A stretch of 64,000 nucleotides of DNA from Spirochaetia bacterium (GTDB lineage Bacteria > Spirochaetota > Spirochaetia > UBA9216): assembly GCA_963675665.1 (NCBI GenBank), contig OY776510.1, forward strand, positions 2,944,001-3,008,000. Reading direction: 5' to 3'. The notes under the pieces are model-generated. The model was not told the DNA's origin and searched no databases. It was given only the letters and a program-made list of their open reading frames with translations. The position numbers and the translations under genes were made by a program. Below, one piece after another: positions 2,145-59,490 of this stretch. How positions within the stretch are numbered: the first letter of the stretch is position 1; every line of letters starts with the position of its first letter.

Positions 2145-3097
2145 TTACCATGCCGTAAAATCAAAATCGGATTCGAGGTTTGATTCGATATTTTCTTCGA
2201 GCATAAAGAAAAAATCAATTCCGGTAATTTCTTCGACTTCATCTACGGAAACCGAAAATTCCGACAATGGTTTATTTGAAGGTTTATTGGGCAAGATAAA
2301 TCCTATTGCCTTTTTCTCCGGGCCGAAATAATCAAGGATTACCTTAAAATAATAGTCAGGCACGCTTACATTGTTTTACCGATTTTATTGAAAAGTCCCC
2401 CGGTAAGTACCGGTCCGGTTACAACATAAATTTCAAAATTCTCCACAACCTTTGTCCTTACCCAGCTTTCAAGTTCTTTCCATATCCCCCGGTTAAACCC
2501 AGGCGCCTGCGGGCTCATGTTGGATAAATAGAAAGAATCGCTGATTGATTCGGAAGACCATTTAAGATCAGCTGCAGGAGCAAGATGCCCTCTGTCGTAT
2601 CCAGATCCTTTATAATCGGACAACTCGGCCGAACCTGTTAGTATCTCAGGATCCGCCCTGAAATTGTCGGTACGATCATGCTCACCTTCTGTTTCGTCAC
2701 ATGTTAACAGGTAAGCAACCCACAACGCCTGTTCGTCGGCTTCACTGTATAAAAGCGAATATCCATGATGATGAATTATTGCGGCAGTATTTTTACAGTA
2801 GGGTAAAGCAAGTTCTTCAAACCCGTATGACTGAAAGACCAAGGGTTTGCCTTCATATTCATTAACAGATGTTGCGTCGGGCGGTTTGCACCGCAGGCAG
2901 GGTTCATACCCGCGGCTAATGGCTTCAGCGAGATCTACAGGAATACCGTTTCCCTTTAAAACTGGGCATTCTTCACGGTGGTATTTTGAACCGGATTTTG
3001 TAATAAAAACAGTTATTTCTTCAGAAAAGCAAATATTTGAAAGGACAGGAATCAGAAGCAGAGCAATAATATATCTTTTGTATAAGCCGATTTTCAT
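2145..3097 (-). pseudogene. DNA/RNA non-specific endonuclease (EndoG/NucA family) split by a 1-nt frameshift
   Basis: ORF 2366-3097 has a signal peptide, YDRGHLAP and NMSPQ..FNRGIW. ORF 2145-2363 supplies the family C-terminus (VPDYYFKV...VDEVEEITGIDFF). One extra A in the run at 2374-2377 joins them into about 317 aa. Confidence 0.8.
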
Positions 3098-3154
3098 TTA
3101 TAACACATCATCCCTGAACAATTATACCAGTATTTATTAATATCAGGTATGGGT

Positions 3155-3760
3155 TTAATGATACAGGGTCAGTAATTGGTTTATTTTTTCCGGAATACTT
3201 TCACGCGGGGGCCTGTCTTCGAGCCATGTTGTGAATAACCCGAATATATAACCTCTGATAGTATGAAGAATCTCAAATGAAGAAAATTTATCTGAAAGCT
3301 GACCTGTTTTCTGGGCCCTTTTAATAACATCCTCAAGGCTTTTGTTTGCATCGCGATAGGTATCCAGAAAATGATTAATGGCAACAGAATCTTCACGATA
3401 ATCTTCGTCAATTACCATCGGGAAAACCTGTGTAAGGATAATATGCAAAAGAGGCATATTATCATAATAAAATTCCGTAATCATTATTACCATTTGTTTC
3501 AGTACAGAAATAGGATTGGTTTCAATATCCTTGAATCGAATATTGTCCAGCGTAAAGTCATGATACTCCTGGTCAAGTATTGTATCGATGATTTCGGGAA
3601 TGCTTTTAAAATAATAGTAAAGACTGCTTTTGTCCATATCTATTGCGTCGGCAATCGATGCCAGTGTGACCTGTTTCCCGTATTTAACAAATAATTCTTT
3701 AGCAGCATCAAGAATTAGTGTTTTTTTCTGTTCCAGCCGTGATTTTTTTGATGCTTTCAT
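3155..3760 (-). CDS. TetR/AcrR family transcriptional regulator
   Basis: N-terminal ILDAAKELF...TLASIADAIDMDKSSLYYYFKS HTH; divergent from the catabolic operon. Confidence 0.92.
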   Translation of the reverse strand: MKASKKSRLEQKKTLILDAAKELFVKYGKQVTLASIADAIDMDKSSLYYYFKSIPEIIDTILDQEYHDFTLDNIRFKDIETNPISVLKQMVIMITEFYYDNMPLLHIILTQVFPMVIDEDYREDSVAINHFLDTYRDANKSLEDVIKRAQKTGQLSDKFSSFEILHTIRGYIFGLFTTWLEDRPPRESIPEKINQLLTLYH

Positions 3761-3931
3761 AAACCTGTCCGTTTAAAAATCCTGTATTCAGTATATAGCA
3801 CTCATTTTAGTATGGCAAGGTTCTTGACAAACAAACTGGAATAAAATTCTGAATATATGAAAAAATAATATTTCCAAAAAATATTCAAGAAGAAAATTTA
3901 ATAATATTTCAAAAAAATTTTGAAAAAAACA

Positions 3932-3965
3932 TTGACATAACGAATATACAATGTAAAATGTTCGT
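3932..3965 (+). promoter_or_regulatory. Sigma70-like promoter overlapped by an imperfect inverted repeat (candidate TetR operator)
   Basis: TTGACA(3932)-N16-TAAAAT(3954); inverted repeat ACGAATAT-N10-ATGTTCGT at 3940-3965. Confidence 0.55.
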
Positions 3966-3990
3966 ATAGAAGTTCATAAGAGGTGAAATT

Positions 3991-5352
3991 TTGAATAGTA
4001 AAGGGAAAAACATACCAAGAAGCTATAAAACTGCTATGCCCTGTGCTGTAAGTGCAGAAGGGATTTATATATATGATGATGATGGAAAACGTTATATAGA
4101 CGGATGCTGCGGAGCTTTAATTTCCAATATCGGCGAATGCGTACCGGAAGTGGTGGACGCAATAAGTGAGCAGCTTCGCACGCTGAATTTTGCTCATCCG
4201 TCAAGATGGCGGAATACTTCAACCGAAGGAGCTGCTGAAGAACTGGCGGAGCTTCTGCCTGATGATCTTAATAATGTCTGGTTTGTCAGCGGCGGAAGTG
4301 AAGCGAATGAATCAGCCGTCAAACTTGCCCGGCAATATTATACAGAACGGGACGGAAAGGGTTCTTCCAAAAATGAAATCATAGGTCGATGGAATTCCTA
4401 TCACGGCGCAACACTGGGATGTATGGCAATAGCCGGAAATATGTCGAGAAGAAGAACATTTGCCCAAATGTTTAAAGAGCATTCGAAAATTGAAACTCAT
4501 TATTGCTACCGATGCCCGTATGGTCTTGAATATCCGAAATGTAAAATAAAATGTGCATATGAGCTTGAGGATACCGTGAATCGTATTGGTGCAGAGTCGA
4601 TTGCAGCTTTTATTGCAGAGCCGATTGTCGGTTCAAGCATAGGGGCTTTAACTCCGCCTGATGAATACTGGCCTGTCGTACGTAAAATATGCAGCGATAA
4701 CGATATTTTGCTTATTGCCGATGAGGTTATGACCGGTATGGGTCGGACGGGTAAGGCTTTCTGTGTTGAGCACTGGAATGTCACTCCCGATATAATGACT
4801 TCGGCAAAGGGGCTTGCCGCAGGGTATATACCTGCAGGCGCGGTGTTCGCCCCGGATTATATAATGAACGTAATAAAGGCCGGCAGCGGAAGTTTTGCAA
4901 ACGGATATACATATAACGGCAATCCGGTTGCGTGTGCAGCGATATCGGCAGTAGCCAGGTATATAAAAAAGAACAGGCTTATAGAAAACGCAGCCCGTCA
5001 GGGGGAGATTCTTGCGAATGAACTGGTGAAGCTGAAAAGTCTGCCGATAGTCGGGGATATCCGTGGTCTGGGGTTGATGAGGGGCATTGAAATTGTTGCT
5101 GATGCTTCAACCAGGGAGCCTTTTCCAGCCGGGCTGCATGCTTCTTCCATGATTGCCCAGGAATGTATGAAAAGGGGACTTGTGATATATCCTTCGGGCG
5201 GTATGGTAAACGGAGGTACCCGGGGGGACAATTTCCTTATTGCTCCCGCCTTGATTGTAACGGAAGAACAAATCGTTGAAATTGTGGAAATACTGTATGA
5301 GAGCCTTAAGACGGTATCGGAGCGTTTGCTTGCCGGAAAAGCAGCAGTGTAA
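3991..5352 (+). CDS. Class III PLP aminotransferase, YodT-like
   Basis: SGGSEA, SYHG, AEPIVG, ADEVMTGMGRTG and SAKG (PLP Lys). The motif pattern recalls Bacillus YodT. TTG start after a GAGGTG RBS. Confidence 0.88.
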   Translation: MNSKGKNIPRSYKTAMPCAVSAEGIYIYDDDGKRYIDGCCGALISNIGECVPEVVDAISEQLRTLNFAHPSRWRNTSTEGAAEELAELLPDDLNNVWFVSGGSEANESAVKLARQYYTERDGKGSSKNEIIGRWNSYHGATLGCMAIAGNMSRRRTFAQMFKEHSKIETHYCYRCPYGLEYPKCKIKCAYELEDTVNRIGAESIAAFIAEPIVGSSIGALTPPDEYWPVVRKICSDNDILLIADEVMTGMGRTGKAFCVEHWNVTPDIMTSAKGLAAGYIPAGAVFAPDYIMNVIKAGSGSFANGYTYNGNPVACAAISAVARYIKKNRLIENAARQGEILANELVKLKSLPIVGDIRGLGLMRGIEIVADASTREPFPAGLHASSMIAQECMKRGLVIYPSGGMVNGGTRGDNFLIAPALIVTEEQIVEIVEILYESLKTVSERLLAGKAAV

Positions 5353-18724: not shown

Positions 18725-19903
18725 ATGGATAGAGTTTACCTTGATAATAATGCAACAACCCTGGTTGATCCCCTTGTAAAAGACGCGATGGACCCTTTTT
18801 TTACAAAAATGTACGGGAACCCCAATTCACTGCACAGTTTCGGCACCGAAATACATCCCTACATGAGTATTGCGCTTGACAGGTTGTACGATGGCATAAA
18901 TGCCGATGATAAGGATGATATATTCATTAACAGCTGCGCTTCCGAGGGAAATAATACAGTAATTAAGTCGCTTTATTTCGACAGTGTTCTTAACAGTAAA
19001 AAAAACCGGATGATCACATCTGCAATTGAGCACCCGGCTGTTTCTAATGTATATTTGTTTCTTGAAAAACTTGGTGTCGATGTGAAATGGCTCCCGGTTA
19101 ACAGCCAGGGAATTGTTGATCCTGCCGAATTGCGAAAAGCTATTGATCCGGATAAAACAGCGCTTGTGTCGCTTATCTGGGCAAATAATGAAACCGGCCT
19201 GATAAACCCGGTTAAAGAGTACGGTGAAATCTGCCGTGAGAACGGAGTAAAACTGCATCTTGACGGAGTTCAGGCTATCGGGAAAATTCCTGTCGATGTT
19301 CAGGATGTTGAAGTCGATTATCTGACCTTCAGCGCCCATAAGTTTCACGGCCCGAAAGGAGTAGGCGGTCTGTATGTCCGAAACGGCGCAGGCATAACTC
19401 CCCTGATCCACGGCGGCGAACAGATGAACGGAAAACGCGCAGGCACCATCAATACCGCTTTCATGATAGGTATGGGACTTGCGCTGGAACTTGCCGTTAA
19501 AAACCTTGATTATGAAGCCACCGAAGTCCGCAGACTGCGCGATAAACTTGAAGACGCCATTCTTGAAATTGATGATGTCGAGGTTATTGGAAGCCGTGAT
19601 ATCCGGACGCCCAATACAATCCTGGCAAGTTTCAGGGGTATTGAGGGTGAAGCTTTCCTCTGGGATCTGAACCAGAAAGGAATAGCAGCATCAACCGGAA
19701 GTGCCTGCTCGTCGGAATCGCTGGAATCAAATCCGACCTTCCAGGCAATGCAGATAGGCGCTGATCTGGCCCATACAGGTATGAGATTCAGCCTGTCGCG
19801 TTATACAACTGAAGAAGAAATTGATTATGCTGTCGATGTTATCAAAGGTGCAGTAGAAAGATTGCGGAGAATCTCATCGACGAGCAACAGGGAATATATC
19901 TGA
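18725..19903 (+). CDS. nifS: Cysteine desulfurase, NifS type
   Basis: YLDNNATT, IEHPAV, SAHKFHGPKG, STGSACSS. Confidence 0.95.
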   Translation: MDRVYLDNNATTLVDPLVKDAMDPFFTKMYGNPNSLHSFGTEIHPYMSIALDRLYDGINADDKDDIFINSCASEGNNTVIKSLYFDSVLNSKKNRMITSAIEHPAVSNVYLFLEKLGVDVKWLPVNSQGIVDPAELRKAIDPDKTALVSLIWANNETGLINPVKEYGEICRENGVKLHLDGVQAIGKIPVDVQDVEVDYLTFSAHKFHGPKGVGGLYVRNGAGITPLIHGGEQMNGKRAGTINTAFMIGMGLALELAVKNLDYEATEVRRLRDKLEDAILEIDDVEVIGSRDIRTPNTILASFRGIEGEAFLWDLNQKGIAASTGSACSSESLESNPTFQAMQIGADLAHTGMRFSLSRYTTEEEIDYAVDVIKGAVERLRRISSTSNREYI

Positions 19904-19988
19904 GTTGGAGTAATTTGGAAAGCGGAATTTTTCAAATTAAATTACAGTAAACCTGCAACCGTGCAGGAAGCTATATATTGGAGAAGTC

Positions 19989-25968: not shown

Positions 25969-27231
25969 TTAGAACTCCTGTAAATTCATGTTTTTATGAG
26001 GGTAAATTACATTGAGAACATTGTCAATTTTTTCAAGATTTTTATTCAGTTTTTTTTGCTGTAAATCTGATAACGGCTGTGTTCCGCTCAGGTCGGAGAG
26101 TTTTTTTATGATTGAATGAACGGCATTAAAACCCTCTCCGAGAGAAAGGTCGTTGTCAAGTTCTTTCTCAAAGGCAGCCGGTATTCTGTCAATCAATAAG
26201 CCGGCCTGTGAATTGTCGTTTGTATTTCCGGAGCATATTGAAGAGATCAGGGATCTGAAATTCCTGATAATATCTGTACTTTGTTTAAAGGCTTTTTCCG
26301 TATAATTAAGCTTTTTACGGTAATGTTTATAGGTAAGAAAAAACCTGATGTCCCGCCAGTCGGCGCCGGATGCCGCGAGGGTTTCGGGATAAATGATATT
26401 CCCGCGGCTTTTGGACATTGTTTTACCGTCCACTATCAGATGGGCTCCGTGCATATAGTAATTGGCGTAATCTTTACCTGTAAAAGCCTCCATTACGGCG
26501 ATGTTGTAATCATGGTGACGGTAGATATTATCTATTCCGCCGCAGTTAATATCAATTTGATCACCGAGGCTCATTGCAACAATTGCCGGATCCTGAATGT
26601 TCCATGAAGGCCTGCCGCGTCCTATTGCAGTGTCCCAGTAAGGATGGTAGGGATCATTTTTATAATTATGCCAGAGTATGAAGTCTCCCATATTCCACCG
26701 GTTGCCGTTGTATGTGTCTTTTCTGAAATGTCTTTTTCTGTCGGGCCAGCGGTTCATATCCAGGCGGAACAGCTTTCCAAAATTATTTATTTTCAGGGGA
26801 TCGAAAAAATAATCCTCTTTATGTTCATAGACGATTTTTTTCTCAATAAGATTCTGAATTATTCGCACCGACTGATCTATGCTTTTGGTAGCCGGTATAA
26901 GATGATCGGGCATAATAAAACCGAACCCGTCCAGGCCTTCCCTGAAAATGGCCAGCACATCATCGGTCAGCGATTTTACATTCGTTTTTTTTCTTTTTGC
27001 TTCGTTTATGGCTTTGTCCTCAATATCGGTTAGGTTCATTGCCCTTTCGACATTGTAACCCTTGTAACGAAGGTATCTGACAAGAAGATCTTCATAGAGA
27101 AAAGTCCGGTAATTACCGATATGAGCTTTCTGATAAATCGATGGTCCGCAAGTGAATATTTTTACATTTTTCCCTTCGCGCGGCTTAAATATTTCGATGC
27201 TGCGTGACATGGTGTTGTATAACTTCAGCAA
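25969..27231 (-). CDS. Cysteinyl-tRNA synthetase paralog (altered active site, no anticodon domain)
   Basis: TCGP, HIGN, NLTDIEDK, DFILW and TMSKS are present. WHIEC is replaced by WNIQD and HHxNE by HHDYN. The protein ends after the DALR-like helical domain. Confidence 0.88.
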   Translation of the reverse strand: MLKLYNTMSRSIEIFKPREGKNVKIFTCGPSIYQKAHIGNYRTFLYEDLLVRYLRYKGYNVERAMNLTDIEDKAINEAKRKKTNVKSLTDDVLAIFREGLDGFGFIMPDHLIPATKSIDQSVRIIQNLIEKKIVYEHKEDYFFDPLKINNFGKLFRLDMNRWPDRKRHFRKDTYNGNRWNMGDFILWHNYKNDPYHPYWDTAIGRGRPSWNIQDPAIVAMSLGDQIDINCGGIDNIYRHHDYNIAVMEAFTGKDYANYYMHGAHLIVDGKTMSKSRGNIIYPETLAASGADWRDIRFFLTYKHYRKKLNYTEKAFKQSTDIIRNFRSLISSICSGNTNDNSQAGLLIDRIPAAFEKELDNDLSLGEGFNAVHSIIKKLSDLSGTQPLSDLQQKKLNKNLEKIDNVLNVIYPHKNMNLQEF

Positions 27232-28778: not shown

Positions 28779-29051
28779 CTATTGTTCCAAAATCCGATCC
28801 AGTTCGTCCGAGCGTTTCTGGACAGCGTTTCTGTACACAGCTATTAACCTGTCTTTTTCGTTTTGTCCTATTTTTCTGTATTCACCGTCAAGAGAATTTT
28901 TGGGAACAATTTTGTGGATCTTTAATTCTGCAAGAGACGGCATAGGCTCTCTGGTGTAATATATAACATAATCGTGAAGATCGTCAAAATCCTCTATGTA
29001 TTCAAGATATTCATTGGTTCCAAGATCAAATATATCGCCCTTCTGCGGCAT
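28779..29051 (-). CDS. Hypothetical protein, 90 aa
   Basis: Open frame with an AGGAG RBS, filling the gap between genes; no recognised motif. Confidence 0.6.
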   Translation of the reverse strand: MPQKGDIFDLGTNEYLEYIEDFDDLHDYVIYYTREPMPSLAELKIHKIVPKNSLDGEYRKIGQNEKDRLIAVYRNAVQKRSDELDRILEQ

Positions 29052-29057
29052 ATAAAA

Positions 29058-29374
29058 CTCCTATAAGAAATTCCTGCATGGATGCAGGTATCTGAGGGTG
29101 TAGTTTGAAAAGATATTTTCAAACTACTAAATGATAAAATAACACGGATGTTATTTTATCATTCCTCCTATAAAACTTTCCGCCATGGAGGGCGGTTTCA
29201 TTACAGGAAGTTTGCATCAGCAAACTTCAAAATGATAAAATCACAAGGAAGTGATTTTATCATTCCTCCTGTAAAACTTTCCGCCATGGAGGGCGGTTTC
29301 ATTACAGGAAGTTTGCATCAGCAAACTTCAAAATGATAAAATCACAAGGAAGTGATTTTATCATTCCTCCTGTA
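29058..29374 (+). repeat. Tandem array of triple-hairpin units with CANGGANG loops (candidate structured RNA or REP-like element)
   Basis: Units 29165-29265 and 29266-29366 (101 bp, 1 mismatch), a diverged unit at 29058-29164, and a partial unit at 29367-29374. Confidence 0.9.
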
Positions 29375-29427
29375 TCTGTATTAAAAACATACTATGCTGA
29401 TTTTGCATATTAGTCTATAATTCGGCT

Positions 29428-29883
29428 ATGATTCCTGAAGATGTACGTGAATTTCTGGATAGACATAAACTGGAAGCTGTTGAGTTTGAAGAAGGCAGTA
29501 CGCCGACCGCAGAAACTGCAGCTATGAAACTGGAAGTAAAAACCGGTCAGATTGCAAAATCAATACTGCTCAAGGCAAAAAAAGGCAATTTCTGTCTTGT
29601 TGTCTGCGCAGGCGACAAAAGAATAGATTCAAAAAAGGCGAAGGAGCTGATCGGATCAAAAATCAGGATGGCGAATGCGGAAGAACTCTATGATATTCTG
29701 GGTTTTAAACCCGGAGAAGTTTGTCCGTTCCGCAATTCCGATATTCCGTATTTTATTGATGAAAGTCTCTCTGTTTACGATACTGTCTACCCTGCAGCAG
29801 GAACTGATTCGTCAGGTGTCCCTGTGGCGTATGACAAGCTTATAGAAATTACCGGTGCGGGAGTATGCGATATAACTGGCTGA
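29428..29883 (+). CDS. YbaK/EbsC family aminoacyl-tRNA deacylase
   Basis: TPTAETAA, QIAKSIL, G..PGEVCPF, YPAAG. Confidence 0.88.
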   Translation: MIPEDVREFLDRHKLEAVEFEEGSTPTAETAAMKLEVKTGQIAKSILLKAKKGNFCLVVCAGDKRIDSKKAKELIGSKIRMANAEELYDILGFKPGEVCPFRNSDIPYFIDESLSVYDTVYPAAGTDSSGVPVAYDKLIEITGAGVCDITG

Positions 29884-45568: not shown

Positions 45569-46966
45569 TTAAAAATCGGCGCTGTGAACAGTTCTCGGAA
45601 ACGGTATAACGTCGCGTATATTCTGCATTCCGGTCATATACTGAATAAGACGTTCAAACCCAAGGCCGAAGCCAGAATGCGGGACCGAGCCGTAGCGGCG
45701 CAGGTCGAGATACCACCAGTAGTCTTCCGCTGTAAGCCCCATGTCTTCAATCCGTTTCGTCAGTTTTTCGAGACTGTCTTCGCGCTGGCTGCCGCCTATG
45801 ATTTCACCGAGTCTGGGGACAAGCACGTCCATGGCCCGCACGGTTTTTTCATCGTCGTTCATTTTCATATAGAACGCTTTTATGTCCTTCGGGTAATCAG
45901 TGACGATTACCGGGCCCCTGAAAACTGTTTCTGTCAGATACTTCTCGTGTTCAGACTGAAGATCCACACCCCAGGACGGTTTGAATTCAAAACCGGAGGT
46001 GTTCTTTTCAAGTTCCTTCATTGCATCTGTATAGCTGACCCGATGAAATTCCGAATTAACGACGGAAACAAGAGAATCTATTATTCCTTTTTCGATAAAT
46101 TTATTAAAAAGTTCCATATCTTCGGTGCAATTATCAAGCACATAGCCTATTACGTATTTAATAAAGGATTCGGCTACATCCATGTTTCCGTCAAGAGCGC
46201 AAAAAGCCATTTCCGGTTCAATCATCCAGAATTCGGCAAGATGGCGCGCAGTGTTGGAATTCTCAGCCCTGAAAGTAGGACCGAAAGTATAAACGTTTGA
46301 ATGGGAAAGAGCGTATATTTCAGCTTCAAGCTGGCCGCTTACCGTCAGCGAAGCTCTTTTGCCGAAAAAATCCCTGCTGTAGTCAACTGCCCCGTTTTCT
46401 CTGGGAATTTCATTAAGGTCGAGAGTTGTTACCTGGAACATCTCGCCGGCGCCCTCGCAGTCGCTTGCGGATATTATAGGGGTATGGATATAGTAAAACC
46501 CGTTTTCCTGGAAAAACTTGTGAACAGCATAACTTGCCGTGCTTCTTACCCTTGTAACAGCGCCGAGAGCATTGGTTCTGGGTCGGAGATGTGCAATTTC
46601 ACGCAGAAACTCAAAGCTGTGCCGCTTTTTCTGAAGCGGGTAACTGTCGGCAGGAGCTTCACCAAGCAGTCGAATTTCGTTAGCCTGAAGCTCAACCGAC
46701 TGGTTTTGCCCCGGCGATTCGGCAAGAATCCCGTCGACTTCAATGCCCGCCCCGGTTGAAAGTTTCTGCAGAAGATCTTCCGGATTATATTTTTCCTTGT
46801 CGATGATTACCTGAAGGTTTTTCAGGCATGACCCGTCTGAAAGTTCGAAAAAACAGACGTTCTTTGAATCACGCTTTGTTCTTATCCATCCGCAAACTGT
46901 TTTTGATTTGTTGTCGGGATTCATTAGCAGTATTTCTTTTATTGACGGTCTCATGTTATACTCCAA
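45569..46966 (-). CDS. asnS: Asparaginyl-tRNA synthetase
   Basis: [34 protein letters not shown]. Confidence 0.97.
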
Positions 46967-46974
46967 AAAAATTA

Positions 46975-47035
46975 CTGTCGTGGACGGCAGCCGCTGAATA
47001 AGAGAATAAGCACAAGGATGTATTTATTCTCTTAT
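46975..47035 (+). other. Two hairpins with GGA-containing loops
   Basis: CTGTC-GTGGAC-GGCAG and ATAAGAGAATAAGCAC-AAGGAT-GTATTTATTCTCTTAT. Confidence 0.65.
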
Positions 47036-47087
47036 ATGTAGTAACATAGTTAAGGCGCTAAGTCAAACTTAACATACTTGCGGGAGA

Positions 47088-51395: not shown

Positions 51396-52772
51396 TCAGC
51401 AACTGCAATTTCCGCAGCAGCAACCGCCTTTTTTTTGTCCGGGTTTACAAATTATTTTATCAAGGCCGTTCCATTTCTTCAAATCTTTCGGAAGGCCGGC
51501 TTCACGTTCCTTGTTTATATAATCAGTCTCTTCAAAATGATATTTGTATTTTGTATGAACGTTATAAGTCCCTTCAAGCAGAGCATATGTATCTTCAGTC
51601 ATAACAAGCTCTTCGTTTGTTGGAATAACATATATTTTGACTTTGGAATCATCAGCGCTGATGCATGTTTCAGCATTTCTGGTCATGGAAGCTATATTCT
51701 TTTCATCGTCAAGCTTTACGCCCATATACTCAAGACCTTCGCAAGCCAGTTTTCTTGTAATAGGGCCCCTTTCGCCGACTCCTGCTGTAAAAACAATTGC
51801 ATCGGCCCCCCCGATTGCTGCGGAGTACGCTCCGATATATTTTTTAATTCGGTAAGATTCAATTGCCTGGCAGAGTATTGCACGCTCATCTCCGCCTTCT
51901 GCGGCTATCTCTATATCGCGTCTGTCTACCCATTTCTCGGTAATGCCGAGTACACCGCTTTCCTTGTTTAGAGCTTTTTCAACTTCGGCGGCGCTCATGC
52001 CTGTTTTGTCCATTATAAAGAACGCTATTGCAGGATCAACATCGCCCGACCTGGTTCCCATAACAAGACCTTCAAGCGGGGTGAGCCCCATTGATGTATC
52101 GAAAGAACATCCGTTTTTTACTGCATTTATGCTTGCCCCGTTTCCGATGTGCGCTATAACAAGATTGGTTTCAAACGGATCTTTTCCGAGAAGCACAGCT
52201 GCACGCTTGGCTGTATATAAAAATGAAGTACCGTGAAAACCGTATCGTCTTACGCCGTAATCTTTGTACCAGCTGTAAGGCAGGGCGTAAATGTATGAAG
52301 ATTCGGGCATTGTCTGATGCCATGCCGTATCCATGATGGCGCAATGTTTAACGTCCGGCAGGATAGCCTCTGCCGCTTCAATTCCTATCAGGTTTGCAGG
52401 AATATGAAGCGGAGCAAGCTGTTCGAGTTCACGGAATGTTCTCATTGCCTCATCGTTGATGATGCATGATTTTGCAAACTTTTCCGCTCCGTGCACAACC
52501 CGGTGCCCGACAGCCTTGATTTCGTTGATATTGCTGATAGCGCCGTATTCGGGGCTGAGAATTGAGTCTATCAGAAGCTTCATTGCTTCTTTGTGAGTTG
52601 GGCAGGGGCTTTCAATTTTTACTTCATCATGGCCCTTTGCCTCATGTTTTATAAAGCTTCCTTCAATACCGATTCGTTCAACTATTCCGGTGGCAAGTGT
52701 TTCCATATTGTCCCAGTCGTAAAGCTGATATTTAAGGGACGAACTCCCGCAGTTAAGGGTTAGTATTACCAA
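51396..52772 (-). CDS. ackA: Acetate kinase with C-terminal extension and Cys-rich tail
   Basis: NCGSSSLK, GHRVVHG, DTAWH, YGFHGTS, GLTPLEG, PTNEE. Confidence 0.93.
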   Translation of the reverse strand: MVILTLNCGSSSLKYQLYDWDNMETLATGIVERIGIEGSFIKHEAKGHDEVKIESPCPTHKEAMKLLIDSILSPEYGAISNINEIKAVGHRVVHGAEKFAKSCIINDEAMRTFRELEQLAPLHIPANLIGIEAAEAILPDVKHCAIMDTAWHQTMPESSYIYALPYSWYKDYGVRRYGFHGTSFLYTAKRAAVLLGKDPFETNLVIAHIGNGASINAVKNGCSFDTSMGLTPLEGLVMGTRSGDVDPAIAFFIMDKTGMSAAEVEKALNKESGVLGITEKWVDRRDIEIAAEGGDERAILCQAIESYRIKKYIGAYSAAIGGADAIVFTAGVGERGPITRKLACEGLEYMGVKLDDEKNIASMTRNAETCISADDSKVKIYVIPTNEELVMTEDTYALLEGTYNVHTKYKYHFEETDYINKEREAGLPKDLKKWNGLDKIICKPGQKKGGCCCGNCSC

Positions 52773-54326: not shown

Positions 54327-55553
54327 ATGGAAAAACTGCTAGTAATAAATTGCGGCAGCTCATCGCTGAAATATGAAGTATATACTATGCCGAACCGTCA
54401 GAGTCTCGGGAAGGGACTTGTTGAGCGCATCGGTGAACCTATGGGCAATATTTCACAGAAATCAGATCGCGGAGTCTTTGAGGAAAATGCACCGCTGTCT
54501 GATCATGAAGCTGCAATGGCGCTTGTAAAAAAGGCGTTAACTGATTCCGAAAAAGGCCTTATCGAATCAATAGAGGAGATAACCGGGGTAGGACACAGAA
54601 CAGTACACGGAGGTGAGGATTACTCATCATCGGTAATAATTGACGATGATGTAATTTCGGCCATAAGGCGCAATGCCGATTTGGCGCCGCTTCATAATCC
54701 GGCAAATCTGATGGGAATAAATGCCGCCATGGAAATGCTTCCCGGCGTTCCGCAGGTGGCCGTATTCGACACGGCGTTCCACCAAACCCTTGCCCCGTCT
54801 TCATATCTGTACGGCTTGCCGCGCGAGCTTTATACAAAATATAAAATCCGGCGATATGGTTTTCACGGAACAAGTCACCGCTATGTTTCAACCGAAGCGC
54901 TGAAGCTGATGAAACGATCTGTAGAGAATACAAATGTAATTTCGTGCCACCTGGGAAATGGAGCATCGATAACGGCAATCAGGCAGGGAAAATCGGTAGA
55001 AACTTCAATGGGATTCACCCCGCTCGAAGGTCTTGTGATGGGTACCCGCAGCGGAGACCTGGATCCTGCAATAATTCTTTTTTTGCTGGAAAAGGGTTTT
55101 ACCAAAGAAGAAATAAATAAAATGATTAATAAAGAGGGCGGGCTGCTTGGGCTTTCCGGCATCTCCAACGATATGAGAGATATCCACATCGAAGCTGACA
55201 AAGGAAATGCATATGCAATCGAAGCCCTTGAAGTATTTGCACACAAGATTCGTCAGTATATTGGAGCATACGCTGCAAACATGGTTAAAGTGGATGTGCT
55301 TGTATTCACCGGAGGAATAGGTGAAAACGATATCCGGATGCGAGAAATGATCTGTCACAGGCTGGAAAATATCGGTATAGTTATGGACTATGAATTAAAC
55401 AAGGTGAACGGTTCAAAACCGGGAATAGTTTCCAAGGACTATTCACCAGTTACTATTGTAATAATGCCGACAAATGAAGAGCTTCAGATTGCTATTGATA
55501 CTTACGATCTTATAAACGAGAAATTTAAAAGCTGGATGCTTATTAAAGAGTAA
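54327..55553 (+). CDS. ackA: Acetate/propionate kinase (second paralog)
   Basis: NCGSSSLK, GHRTVHGG, APLHN, DTAFH, YGFHGTSH, PTNEE. Confidence 0.92.
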   Translation: MEKLLVINCGSSSLKYEVYTMPNRQSLGKGLVERIGEPMGNISQKSDRGVFEENAPLSDHEAAMALVKKALTDSEKGLIESIEEITGVGHRTVHGGEDYSSSVIIDDDVISAIRRNADLAPLHNPANLMGINAAMEMLPGVPQVAVFDTAFHQTLAPSSYLYGLPRELYTKYKIRRYGFHGTSHRYVSTEALKLMKRSVENTNVISCHLGNGASITAIRQGKSVETSMGFTPLEGLVMGTRSGDLDPAIILFLLEKGFTKEEINKMINKEGGLLGLSGISNDMRDIHIEADKGNAYAIEALEVFAHKIRQYIGAYAANMVKVDVLVFTGGIGENDIRMREMICHRLENIGIVMDYELNKVNGSKPGIVSKDYSPVTIVIMPTNEELQIAIDTYDLINEKFKSWMLIKE

Positions 55554-58074: not shown

Positions 58075-59490
58075 GTGAACATAAACTTATATAACACTCT
58101 TGGCAGAGAGCTGCAGGAATTCAAGCCGATTAATGAAAAAGAGGTCGGCCTGTACTGTTGCGGGCCTACCGTTTATAACTATGCGCATATCGGAAATCTG
58201 AGAACATACGTATTTGAAGACTTGCTTAGAAGGGTATTGGAATACGCCGGTTACAATGTAAACCATGTAATGAATGTGACGGACGTCGGCCATCTGACCG
58301 GCGATCAGGACGACGGAGAAGACAAACTTGAAAAGAGCGCCCGTGAAACAGGCAAATCTCCGACGGAGATAGCAGAATTTTATACCGATGCTTTTTTCAG
58401 GGATATCGACAGGCTTAATATCATCAGACCGAAAACAGCCTGTGTTGCTACAAAACACATCGGCAATATGATAGGACTTATAAAAAGGCTTGAAGCCGGC
58501 GGATTTACATATATTGAAGGCGGAAACGTATATTTCGACACTGAAAAATTTGCCGGATACGGTGAGCTTGCGCTTCTTGATCGGCAGAAGCTTAAAGCCG
58601 GGGCCAGAATTGCCGTTGACGGAAATAAAAAGAACCCTGCCGATTTTGTTCTCTGGTTTACCAAATCAAAGTTTGAAAATCATATAATGCAGTGGGATTC
58701 TCCCTGGGGTACGGGCTATCCGGGGTGGCATATAGAATGCTCGGCTATGAGCATGAAGTATCTCGGCGAGCAATTCGACATTCACTGCGGCGGAATTGAT
58801 CATATACCAATTCATCATACAAACGAGATAGCACAGTCTGAGGCCGCTACCGGCAGGAAATGGGTTAACTACTGGATTCATGGTGAATTTCTTCTGATGG
58901 ACAAGCAGAAAATGGCAAAATCCGCCGGTAATTTTCTTACGCTCCAGACCCTGGTAGACAAGGGATATGATCCTCTCGATTACAGGTATTTCTGCCTGGG
59001 AGGTCATTACCGATCACAGCTTGTTTTTAATTTTGAATCGCTTGATGCCGCCCGGAATGCGCGAAGAAATCTGGTTGAAAGAATTGAAGAGCTGAAATCA
59101 TTCGCTGAGCCTGCTCATGCAGATAGTCTTGGCGAAAGGGCCGGGGGTATAATCAACCGTTTCAATGAAAGCCTTATAAACGATCTTAATGCGCCCAGGG
59201 CCCTTGCCGAATTATGGCAATTGCTCAAGGACAACGATATATCGCCCGAAGATAAACTTGGCGCTGCAATTGAGATGGATCGGGTATTCGGCCTGCAGCT
59301 GTCTGAAATAGAAGCTCCGGCAGCCGAATTGTCGGATGCGGAAATATCAATAATTCGGGATCGTGAACAGGCAAGGGCCGATAAAAACTGGGGAAAAGCC
59401 GACGAACTGAGGGATAAACTGCTGTCTTTGGGTATTGAAATAAAGGATACTTCAGACGGAACACAATGGAAAAAGAGAGGTAACCGTTAA
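58075..59490 (+). CDS. cysS: Cysteinyl-tRNA synthetase (canonical)
   Basis: [30 protein letters not shown], and the anticodon domain R..AR..K.W..AD.LR. Confidence 0.97.

Follow-up and report, generated by a model that had tools for sequence, protein, structure and literature searches.

Three tandem TD-2/TD-1 family cassettes with A-N-GGA-N hexaloops beside a conserved small gene of a spirochaete

Described motifs and RNAs with similar hairpins

The structured motifs TD-1 (RF03155) and TD-2 (RF03162), which are partners in the Rfam clan CL00124, were described by Weinberg et al. in 2007 (PMC1950547). The copies reported there come from Treponema denticola only (36 for TD-2 and 28 for TD-1). 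TD-1 lies on the strand opposite to TD-2 and has two hairpins in common with the TD-2 reverse complement, and an overlap with reverse-complemented TD-2 copies is reported for seven copies of TD-1 (PMC1950547). TD-1 is said to be 'usually in a 5' regulatory configuration', and the supplementary table places it upstream of a gene in 27 of 29 instances, with 2 exceptions (PMC1950547); the copies analysed here have the same setting when their reverse strand is considered. The parts of that paper considered here give no function for TD-1 or TD-2 and draw no link to CsrA (PMC1950547). Mentions of either motif beyond this publication were not found in the literature searched.

Hairpins of the form C-A-N-GGA-N-G represent the high-affinity consensus bound by CsrA and RsmE, and Proteobacteria possess one to three dedicated genes for RNAs that act as CsrA sponges. 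CsrB, CsrC and RsmX/Y/Z consist of hairpin arrays with GGA in the loops, as does the array reported here. They are, however, products of dedicated genes, one to few per genome, each with its own promoter and terminator, whereas the cassettes studied here are dispersed and such signals were not found by consensus scan. AYGGAY-type loops are likewise present in TwoAYGGAY (RF01731) and in the reverse complement of Bacillaceae-1. Both motifs are multi-copy and without an assigned function; they differ from the present cassettes in that two hairpins sit on a common basal stem, and their hosts are Pseudomonadota and Bacillota. They have been proposed to be CsrA-binding small RNAs (PMC4333381), and multi-copy TwoAYGGAY has been discussed as a possible 'multivalent Csr/Rsm sponge' (bioRxiv 10.64898/2026.09.22.753630).

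Three TD-2 copies in tandem

The window, i.e. the whole stretch of DNA that was analysed, comprises 64,000 nt. Within it, a 376-nt spacer between two divergent genes houses an array (29058-29374) in which direct reading reveals three tandem units of three hairpins each (HP1, HP2 and HP3). Tandem Repeats Finder assigns to 29120-29374 a period of 101 nt with 2.5 copies and 95% matches. The layout is given below, with unit boundaries set from a CTCCT box and with scores of the Rfam TD-2 model and of our own covariance model, R1.

29058-29164: unit 1 as bounded by the CTCCT box, 107 nt
29072-29167, + strand: TD-2 copy of unit 1 (RF03162, 55.3 bits; R1, 96.4 bits)
29073-29088, 29100-29127 and 29130-29163: HP1 (loop ATGGAT), HP2 and HP3 (loop ACGGAT) of unit 1
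29165-29265: unit 2 as bounded by the CTCCT box
29179-29268, + strand: TD-2 copy of unit 2 (RF03162, 56.5 bits; R1, 105.9 bits)
29180-29195, 29207-29228 and 29231-29264: HP1 (loop ATGGAG), HP2 and HP3 (loop AAGGAA) of unit 2
29266-29366: unit 3 as bounded by the CTCCT box
29280-29369, + strand: TD-2 copy of unit 3 (RF03162, 56.5 bits)
29281-29296, 29308-29329 and 29332-29365: HP1, HP2 and HP3 of unit 3

Unit 2 differs from unit 3 at one of 101 positions (29170 A versus 29271 G), while an alignment of units 1 and 2 has 78 identical columns out of 109. Unit 1 is thus an older, diverged copy and units 2 and 3 are a very recent duplicate pair. The stem differences between unit 1 and units 2 and 3 are all two-sided, and direct reading found no broken pair. 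All six outer loops of the array (HP1 and HP3) have the form C-ANGGAN-G on the + strand, exactly as the original prediction, which proposed a CsrA sponge RNA at this site, had claimed; the hairpins that it quoted were each recovered at their places by direct reading and in an inverted-repeat listing.

The array is clearly not a product of chance. A core pattern that left the loops free matched three times in the window against 0.00 expected from 100 shuffles, and the + strand of the array folds at -139.9 kcal/mol compared with -74.3 in shuffled sequences (z = -10.6); the corresponding z for the - strand is -12.9. In the entire 64-kb window, the six loops of the array are the sole noncoding A-N-GGA-N hexaloops whose stem has 5 or more pairs. 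A 62-aa open reading frame within the array (29148-29336, + strand) has no Pfam family and was treated as an artefact because the repeat itself creates the frame.

At Rfam gathering thresholds the whole window yielded exactly three matches, all of them to TD-2 on the + strand. They scored 55.3, 56.5 and 56.5 bits against a gathering threshold of 48.7 and spanned positions 1-98 of the 98-position model. The array therefore consists of three members, in tandem, of TD-2/TD-1, a family of structured cassettes in spirochaete intergenic regions. What had escaped the original prediction is that this motif is already catalogued: the units are a new tandem-array member of a known family in a spirochaete other than T. 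denticola, and not a new class. In common with TD-2, the units have three disjoint hairpins and GGA loops, a conserved middle stem (AGUUU/AAACU) and a third stem rich in A/U, and TD-2 as described is multi-copy, like the family members found here. By contrast, the published description is restricted to T. denticola (PMC1950547), while the present window has a G+C content of 43.4% and the protein encoded next to the array belongs to a contig of 5.15 Mb, and the subgroup to which the array belongs has in addition a Shine-Dalgarno (SD)-type box on each side and is present here as a three-unit tandem array.

Other families matched less well. The best - strand match of the array to TD-1 (29226-29341) reached 17.4 bits against a gathering threshold of 64.5, so that the array is not a member of that family. 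When 28900-29550 was searched at E <=10, TD-2 alone was above threshold, and TwoAYGGAY, TD-1, CRISPR-DR21, GcvB and snoRNA/miRNA entries were far below their cut-offs; TwoAYGGAY scored 25.2 bits against a gathering threshold of 43 (E = 0.16). CsrB, CsrC and RsmX/Y/Z gave no match at the gathering threshold or at E values up to 10. We also considered two further types of structured element. An integron attC site was ruled out on account of three separate hairpins in place of one long imperfect one, and of the housekeeping neighbours. ANTAR-type dual hairpins, whose hexaloops carry A1 and G4, were rejected too, since an Rfam match to this type was lacking, the hairpins are separated by about 45 nt, and none overlaps a terminator.

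Relatives, covariation and the outer loops

Genome contigs were scanned with a pattern in which five stem blocks were fixed and both outer loops were left free. It matched at least 119 loci, many of which represent chance matches or matches to a Lachnospiraceae repeat. Model R1, built from five copies, was run on 100 of the 120 sources, the 20 loci left out being non-spirochaete, non-Lachnospiraceae matches. Real copies are present at no fewer than 16 spirochaete loci outside the window, which belong to Treponema MAGs, Spirochaeta sp. UBA9216, Spirochaetales and Spirochaetaceae MAGs, and a Thalassospirochaeta MAG. Among the matches listed, 11 of the 16 spirochaete loci were above the Rfam TD-2 threshold (13 matches), and the nearest relatives of the array units are found in non-Treponema Spirochaetales MAGs (loci L072, L089, L070 and L062). 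As to the host, homologues of the 90-aa protein encoded next to the array carry the names of Spirochaetales MAGs, and the closest copies, among the matches listed, are in Spirochaeta/Spirochaetales MAGs.

The Lachnospiraceae repeat is a look-alike; among the matches listed, 0 of 4 Lachnospiraceae loci exceeded the Rfam TD-2 threshold.

With R1 at E <=1e-5 we obtained 22 copies from the window and the 16 loci, among the matches listed. Across the 21 distinct copies, standard pairing holds in 98.9% of 568 cells, and two-sided changes are seen for 23 of 28 pairs, figures that are to be read with the alignment being fitted to the model and with the pattern-fixed stem blocks being unable to vary in pattern-found copies. 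None of 500 shuffles equalled the real values, and artificially slid partners paired in only 37-52% of cases. The three-hairpin structure of TD-2 is thus supported by covariation across the 21 distinct copies, and the pairing-preserving stem changes that had been pointed out between the units of the array hold and extend to 22 copies, including those from other spirochaete genomes.

Both outer loops had been left unconstrained in the scan. In the 22 copies, the A-N-GGA-N hexaloop is matched exactly by 34 of 44 loops, and GGA is present in 38 (18 of 22 for HP1, 20 of 22 for HP3). The first hexaloop position is A in 38 of 40 cases and the sixth is mostly U. The loops are closed by a C-G pair in 19 of 20 (HP1) and 18 of 21 (HP3) distinct copies. 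Because GGA recurs in most copies even though the scan left the loops unspecified, the CsrA-like signature is family-wide and under selection, and the A-N-GGA-N loops together with their C-G closing pair are a selected feature of the family as a whole. The alternative contained in the original prediction, a dispersed repeat maintained under selection, was correct in that TD-2 is a multi-copy family; copies elsewhere with unconserved loops, which it had named as evidence against itself, were not encountered. Tandem arrays recur as well: locus L071 has three copies within 500 nt plus a fourth.

A second model (R2), for which the 22 copies were all used, was run on the window with filters switched off. 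Besides the three units and palindromic echoes of these on the - strand, it returned one further significant match:

46974-47037, + strand: two-hairpin relative without HP2 (R1, 25.7 bits, E = 0.011; R2, 29.2 bits, E = 2.2e-4)

Its loops are GTGGAC and AAGGAT, and it directly precedes a - strand gene similar to that for asparaginyl-tRNA synthetase (asnS-like), with GGAG-N6-ATG and the ATG at 46954. The nifS-nifU spacer (19902-19968, - strand) has a like layout at a non-significant score (R2, 17.5 bits, E = 0.08). Rfam reported no TD family at either of the two places.

Gene context, strand and possible functions

The genes and signals that flank the array are as follows.

28779-29051, - strand: open reading frame of a conserved gene for a 90-aa protein, its start codon facing the array
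29058-29062, - strand: AGGAG SD box of the 90-aa gene (CTCCT on the + strand), 6 nt before the ATG at 29051
29164-29169, - strand: SD-like AGGAGG (CCTCCT on the + strand) between units 1 and 2
29265-29270 and 29366-29371, - strand: further copies of the AGGAGG box
29389-29417, - strand: candidate promoter TAGACT-N17-TAGTAT, from direct reading
29428-29883, + strand: gene with a YbaK/aminoacyl-tRNA editing domain (PF04073, E = 1.3e-29)

The 90-aa protein has 28 homologues of 78-103 aa with 66-100% identity (100% being the protein itself), two of which are named 'hypothetical protein, Spirochaetales bacterium'; matches to a Pfam family were not found. Judging by these homologues, the gene is real and conserved. 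Its AGGAG box and the boxes at the end of each unit are homologous and form a family of direct repeats. Among the matches listed, a CTCCT or CCTCC box follows HP3 within at most 10 nt in 10 of 23 copies examined. With this box after HP3 and an SD box before the ATG, each cassette of the subgroup is bracketed by SD-type boxes that are oriented with the strand of the genes. On the other side of the array, a perfect TATAAT (29416-29421) ends 6 nt before the ATG of the YbaK-domain gene, and no SD box was seen there. The mRNA of this gene thus looks leaderless, and the array would not be required in it.

The same geometry is found at other loci. With TD-2 written as the + strand, 14 of the 15 left neighbouring reading frames (p = 0.0005) and 12 of 15 right ones (p = 0.018) are on the - strand, among the matches listed; these figures come from crude frame calls, in which the longest frames of 70 aa or more that did not overlap were taken as neighbours, and they include two loci with two rows apiece. 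In the direction of the genes, 11 of 19 copies among the matches listed show the order HP1 reverse, 0-22 nt of mostly U-rich linker, (A)GGAG or AGGA, 3-10 nt, and ATG. The genes behind the cassettes are unrelated to each other and include, besides the 90-aa gene and the asnS-like gene, rpiB, znuA, leuA and genes for a pectate lyase and a CAAX protease; the copy at L072 is located between tal and rpiB-tkt.

This fixed register before the ribosome-binding site (RBS) of the left gene, often between co-directional genes, is most simply understood if the cassette is part of a leader. Based on the - strand SD boxes on both sides and on the position before a start codon, we propose tentatively, and with somewhat less than even confidence, that the array is a structured leader cassette of the - strand 90-aa gene. 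It would mainly be read leftward as a leader of about 330 nt of the gene at 28779-29051 and would act in cis by affecting either leader stability or access to the RBS, which sits in an A/U-rich open stretch right after a G+C-clamped hairpin. Unequal recombination between the repeated SD boxes would shift the number of units. Selection holds each copy to three hairpins, with A-N-GGA-N hexaloops closed by C-G in the outer two.

Leftward transcription could start at TAGACT-N17-TAGTAT (29417-29389), which the original prediction had regarded as a plausible - strand promoter. Direct reading confirms that the sequence is present; as a promoter it is a modest candidate with just 8 of 12 consensus positions, and it is not listed by the promoter scan because 8 of 12 falls under the cut-off. 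If active, it would start a transcript about 8 nt before the array. The scan found 4 promoter-like sites compared with 3.5 expected by chance, and those nearest to the array are on the - strand. A + strand promoter near the array was not found by this consensus scan, a weak test whose outcome concurs with the earlier caveat that no clear one can be seen. On the same strand, only the short HP1 stems within the units score as terminator-like in the consensus scan.

Several further candidates for signals in the array were tried and rejected. Promoters inside the unit consist on either strand of poor hexamers, none of which is conserved across copies. HP1 and HP3 do not qualify as intrinsic terminators, the HP1 stem having just 5 bp and that of HP3 being A/U-rich, although HP1 is listed by the scan as a site on either strand. 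If a leader peptide began at a - strand AGGAGG-A-ATG, its SD-ATG spacing would be 1 nt and, in unit 1, a stop would follow after 3 codons, and direct reading of the T. denticola-like copies shows that the ATG is missing there.

The following observations speak against a leader. In the TD-2 orientation the wobble cells comprise 10 G·U/U·G versus 3 A·C/C·A (one-sided p = 0.046), which weakly favours the + strand; the support is weak because related copies share several G·U cells, and the number of independent events is thus smaller. Moreover, the match of the loops to the CsrA/RsmE-type consensus falls on the + strand, whereas the NUCCNU loops of the - strand have no known reader, so that a leader model leaves the loops unexplained. 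Folding energy picks no strand: of 21 copies, 10 are more stable on the TD-2 strand and 11 on the opposite one.

A possible reader of the - strand loops is the SD sequence itself. Their UCC might act as an anti-SD element, either in cis, with the reversed HP1 loop forming a pseudoknot with the SD box 8-12 nt downstream, or in trans, in the manner of the C-rich loops of staphylococcal small RNAs. Complementarity does exist between the loops and the GGA in the SD boxes on either side of the units, a 5-bp stem, a 6-nt loop and a linker of 8-12 nt would permit an H-type pseudoknot, and direct reading found 5-6 nt of complementarity in a few copies (L056 and L071b). In most copies, however, pairing would be limited to UCC·GGA (3 bp); direct reading put potential loop-SD pairing at just 3-4 bp for the majority, and no consistent covariation is seen between the variable loop positions and the SD flanks. 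Anti-SD pairing would also assign no role to the first loop position, conserved as A on + and U on -, or to the closing C-G pair. We consider it very improbable.

The loops would be accounted for if the + strand were transcribed and bound CsrA. In one form of this proposal, the triple array titrates CsrA by means of three dimers; in another, the element brings CsrA to those transcripts that carry it. Since the HP1 and HP3 loops resemble two high-affinity hairpins about 60 nt apart, each unit could be clamped by a single CsrA dimer. The 34 exact hexaloops and 38 GGA-containing loops of 44, their C-G closure and the fact that the scan pattern did not specify them argue for such a function, as do the 10 G·U versus 3 A·C cells, the modelling of TD-2 on the + strand by both Rfam and Weinberg et al. 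(PMC1950547), the recurrence of tandem arrays as at L071, and the TwoAYGGAY and Bacillaceae-1 precedents. Relatives have csrA: in T. denticola it is TDE2355 within flgN-flgK-flgL-fliW-csrA (PMC9481697), and in Leptospira it lies beside fliW (PMC8668096). For Leptospira biflexa, one CsrA-regulating noncoding RNA was predicted by motif density (PMC4863578).

Gene context lowers the probability of a CsrA sponge. The several GGA hairpin loops typical of CsrB and RsmZ are present as six + strand hexaloops, but a promoter and terminator of their own on the GGA strand were not found by consensus scan, again a weak test. What lies upstream of HP1 is the start of an opposite-strand gene that varies by locus, and every one of dozens of free-standing sponge genes would have to possess a promoter within unrelated coding sequence. 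At most of the loci listed, the TD-2 orientation is antisense to both neighbours, and it abuts an RBS on the other strand, which is at odds with a free-standing + strand gene of the CsrB type. Dozens of dispersed copies, such as the 36 of T. denticola (PMC1950547), are unlike dedicated sponge genes, and neither the Rfam CsrB/CsrC/RsmX/Y/Z families nor TwoAYGGAY (25.2 bits versus 43) is matched. In addition, csrA and fliW are absent from the window (Pfam search of 65 window ORFs), and the fliW-adjacent clade of CsrA is described as antagonised by FliW (PMC8668096). Hence, of the sponge originally predicted, the structure, the compensatory changes and the loops stood, while the idea of an independent + strand gene lacks a promoter, a terminator and a match to the Csr/Rsm families. 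A + strand CsrA decoy or CsrA-binding RNA is in our view rather doubtful.

A reading at the level of DNA is that the array is a selfish or neutral repeat of the REP/MITE type, its hairpins and loops being recognised by a recombinase or transposase that works on single-stranded DNA, or the units spreading through recombination at the SD boxes and lacking any RNA function themselves. Consistent with this, the family is multi-copy and located beside unrelated genes, adjacent units in arrays are near-identical (1 difference in 101), and the same box is present on both sides, with L002 and L056 sharing 11 nt in each flank by direct reading. The excess of G·T on one strand fits DNA hairpins, too, and TwoAYGGAY of Pseudomonas, which is linked to REP arrays and highly variable in copy number (bioRxiv 10.64898/2026.09.22.753630), offers an analogy. 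REP and BIME elements are likewise short structured intergenic repeats that often lie between co-directional genes, as does the copy between tal and rpiB-tkt. They differ in that the cassettes have no GTAG-type head, inverted pairs or associated RAYT gene, are diverged with compensation, and keep a fixed register to the downstream RBS.

Divergence is one argument against a DNA repeat of this kind. Copies within one genome are very diverged and yet retain pairing (the four at L071; unit 1 versus units 2 and 3 versus 46974), and such compensatory changes point to selection at each locus rather than to a recent burst. No terminal inverted repeats were seen, and the flanking boxes are not target-site duplications because they are alike at all loci. 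A transposase was absent among the 65 window ORFs (Pfam), an IS-type HTH frame was found at just 1 of 12 flanked loci among the matches listed, and plasmid and phage collections gave zero matches. Judged by terminal inverted repeats, locus-specific target-site duplications, near-identical copies and a linked transposase taken together, the cassettes do not classify as a mobile repeat of the REP/MITE type. We regard an origin as a plain DNA repeat as quite unlikely.

With the leader cassette as our tentative preference, it is nevertheless tempting to speculate on a bolder, though unlikely, alternative in which TD-2 units are genuine CsrA-binding modules that accommodate one dimer per unit on the HP1 and HP3 loops and serve as RNA antagonists in spirochaetes, in addition to the protein FliW, the sole control assumed for CsrA there. 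If so, these antagonists would not be single genes but dozens of dispersed cassettes that can be amplified into arrays like that at 29058-29374, and because the cassettes are antisense to RBSs, antisense transcription would tie the titration of CsrA to neighbouring gene expression.

Our analysis contributes to the characterization of two motifs that have been catalogued since 2007 with no function assigned. It extends the TD-2 family past T. denticola to several Spirochaetales lineages and adds three features to its description: both outer loops are under strong selection for A-N-GGA-N, one subgroup is locked in register to an RBS on the opposite strand, and the family forms tandem arrays. What was a vague motif is thereby narrowed to two sharp alternatives that are cheap to test, namely that it is a leader cassette or that it serves as a CsrA decoy. 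Should CsrA not bind, TD-2 would be a clear example of a structured cassette linked to translation starts; if it does, TD-2 would be the first such RNA partner of CsrA in a phylum for which FliW alone is considered.

A look-alike repeat in Lachnospiraceae

Among the matches listed from the pattern scan of genome contigs, a multi-copy three-hairpin repeat arranged like TD-2 was also seen in Lachnospiraceae and Eisenbergiella genomes, at the following loci (L-numbers denote scan matches).

L003, L009, L012, L014, L018, L019, L022, L028, L035-L037, L043, L044, L050
L052-L055, L057, L059, L066, L069, L073, L077, L078, L080, L085-L087
L092, L096, L101, L103, L106, L109, L111, L116, L118

Common to this repeat and TD-2 are the AGTTT/AAACT middle stem, an A/T-rich third stem with CCTCC 5-7 nt beyond it, and the orientation relative to neighbouring genes, a likeness that is partly imposed by the search pattern. 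Unlike TD-2, however, the Lachnospiraceae repeat lacks GGA loops, and none of the four loci tested gave an Rfam match. Read on the strand of the genes, it is flanked on either side by a direct repeat of approximately 15 nt (GCTTCGGCATGGAGG) whose end is the Shine-Dalgarno sequence, with the ATG of the gene coming after the downstream copy. Folding was more stable for the pattern-sense strand in 26 of the 33 distinct copies.

Clustered TD-2 copies, a relative and a spacer of similar layout

In one Treponema MAG contig (L071, positions 2966-5120), four TD-2 copies lie within 2.2 kb in a single orientation, three of them within 500 nt. Stem sequences diverge strongly between these copies, yet compensation is complete. 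Two further elements were noted in the window.

46974-47037 (+): two-hairpin relative of the TD-2 unit, loops GTGGAC and AAGGAT, middle hairpin absent
19902-19968 (-): nifS-nifU spacer with the G+C-clamped hairpin CCTGCA-ACCG-TGCAGG

The former is flanked by a divergent asnS-like gene, whose start it immediately precedes, and by an ArsC-family gene. In the nifS-nifU spacer the hairpin is followed by 12 nt, GGAG, 5 nt and ATG, which is the same arrangement as in the TD-2 subgroup that adjoins gene starts; its match to our TD-2 covariance models was non-significant (17.5-19.9 bits; E = 0.08-0.19).

Other genes in the window

Two pairs of similar genes are present.

25969-27231 (-) and 58075-59490 (+): cysteinyl-tRNA-synthetase-like genes
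51396-52772 (-) and 54327-55553 (+): acetate kinase genes, on opposite strands and less than 3 kb apart

The cysteinyl-tRNA-synthetase-like gene on the minus strand is the shorter copy, without a match to the C-terminal anticodon-binding domain. A DNA/RNA non-specific endonuclease gene (PF01223; 2145-3097, minus strand) is broken into two adjacent ORFs that cover consecutive profile parts (17-153 and 161-217) in different frames; either the gene is a pseudogene with a frameshift or the sequence contains an error here. At the start of the YbaK-like gene (29416-29430 on the plus strand, up to and including the start codon), a perfect TATAAT ends 6 nt before the ATG and no Shine-Dalgarno sequence was seen before this start codon, which suggests that the YbaK-like mRNA may be leaderless.
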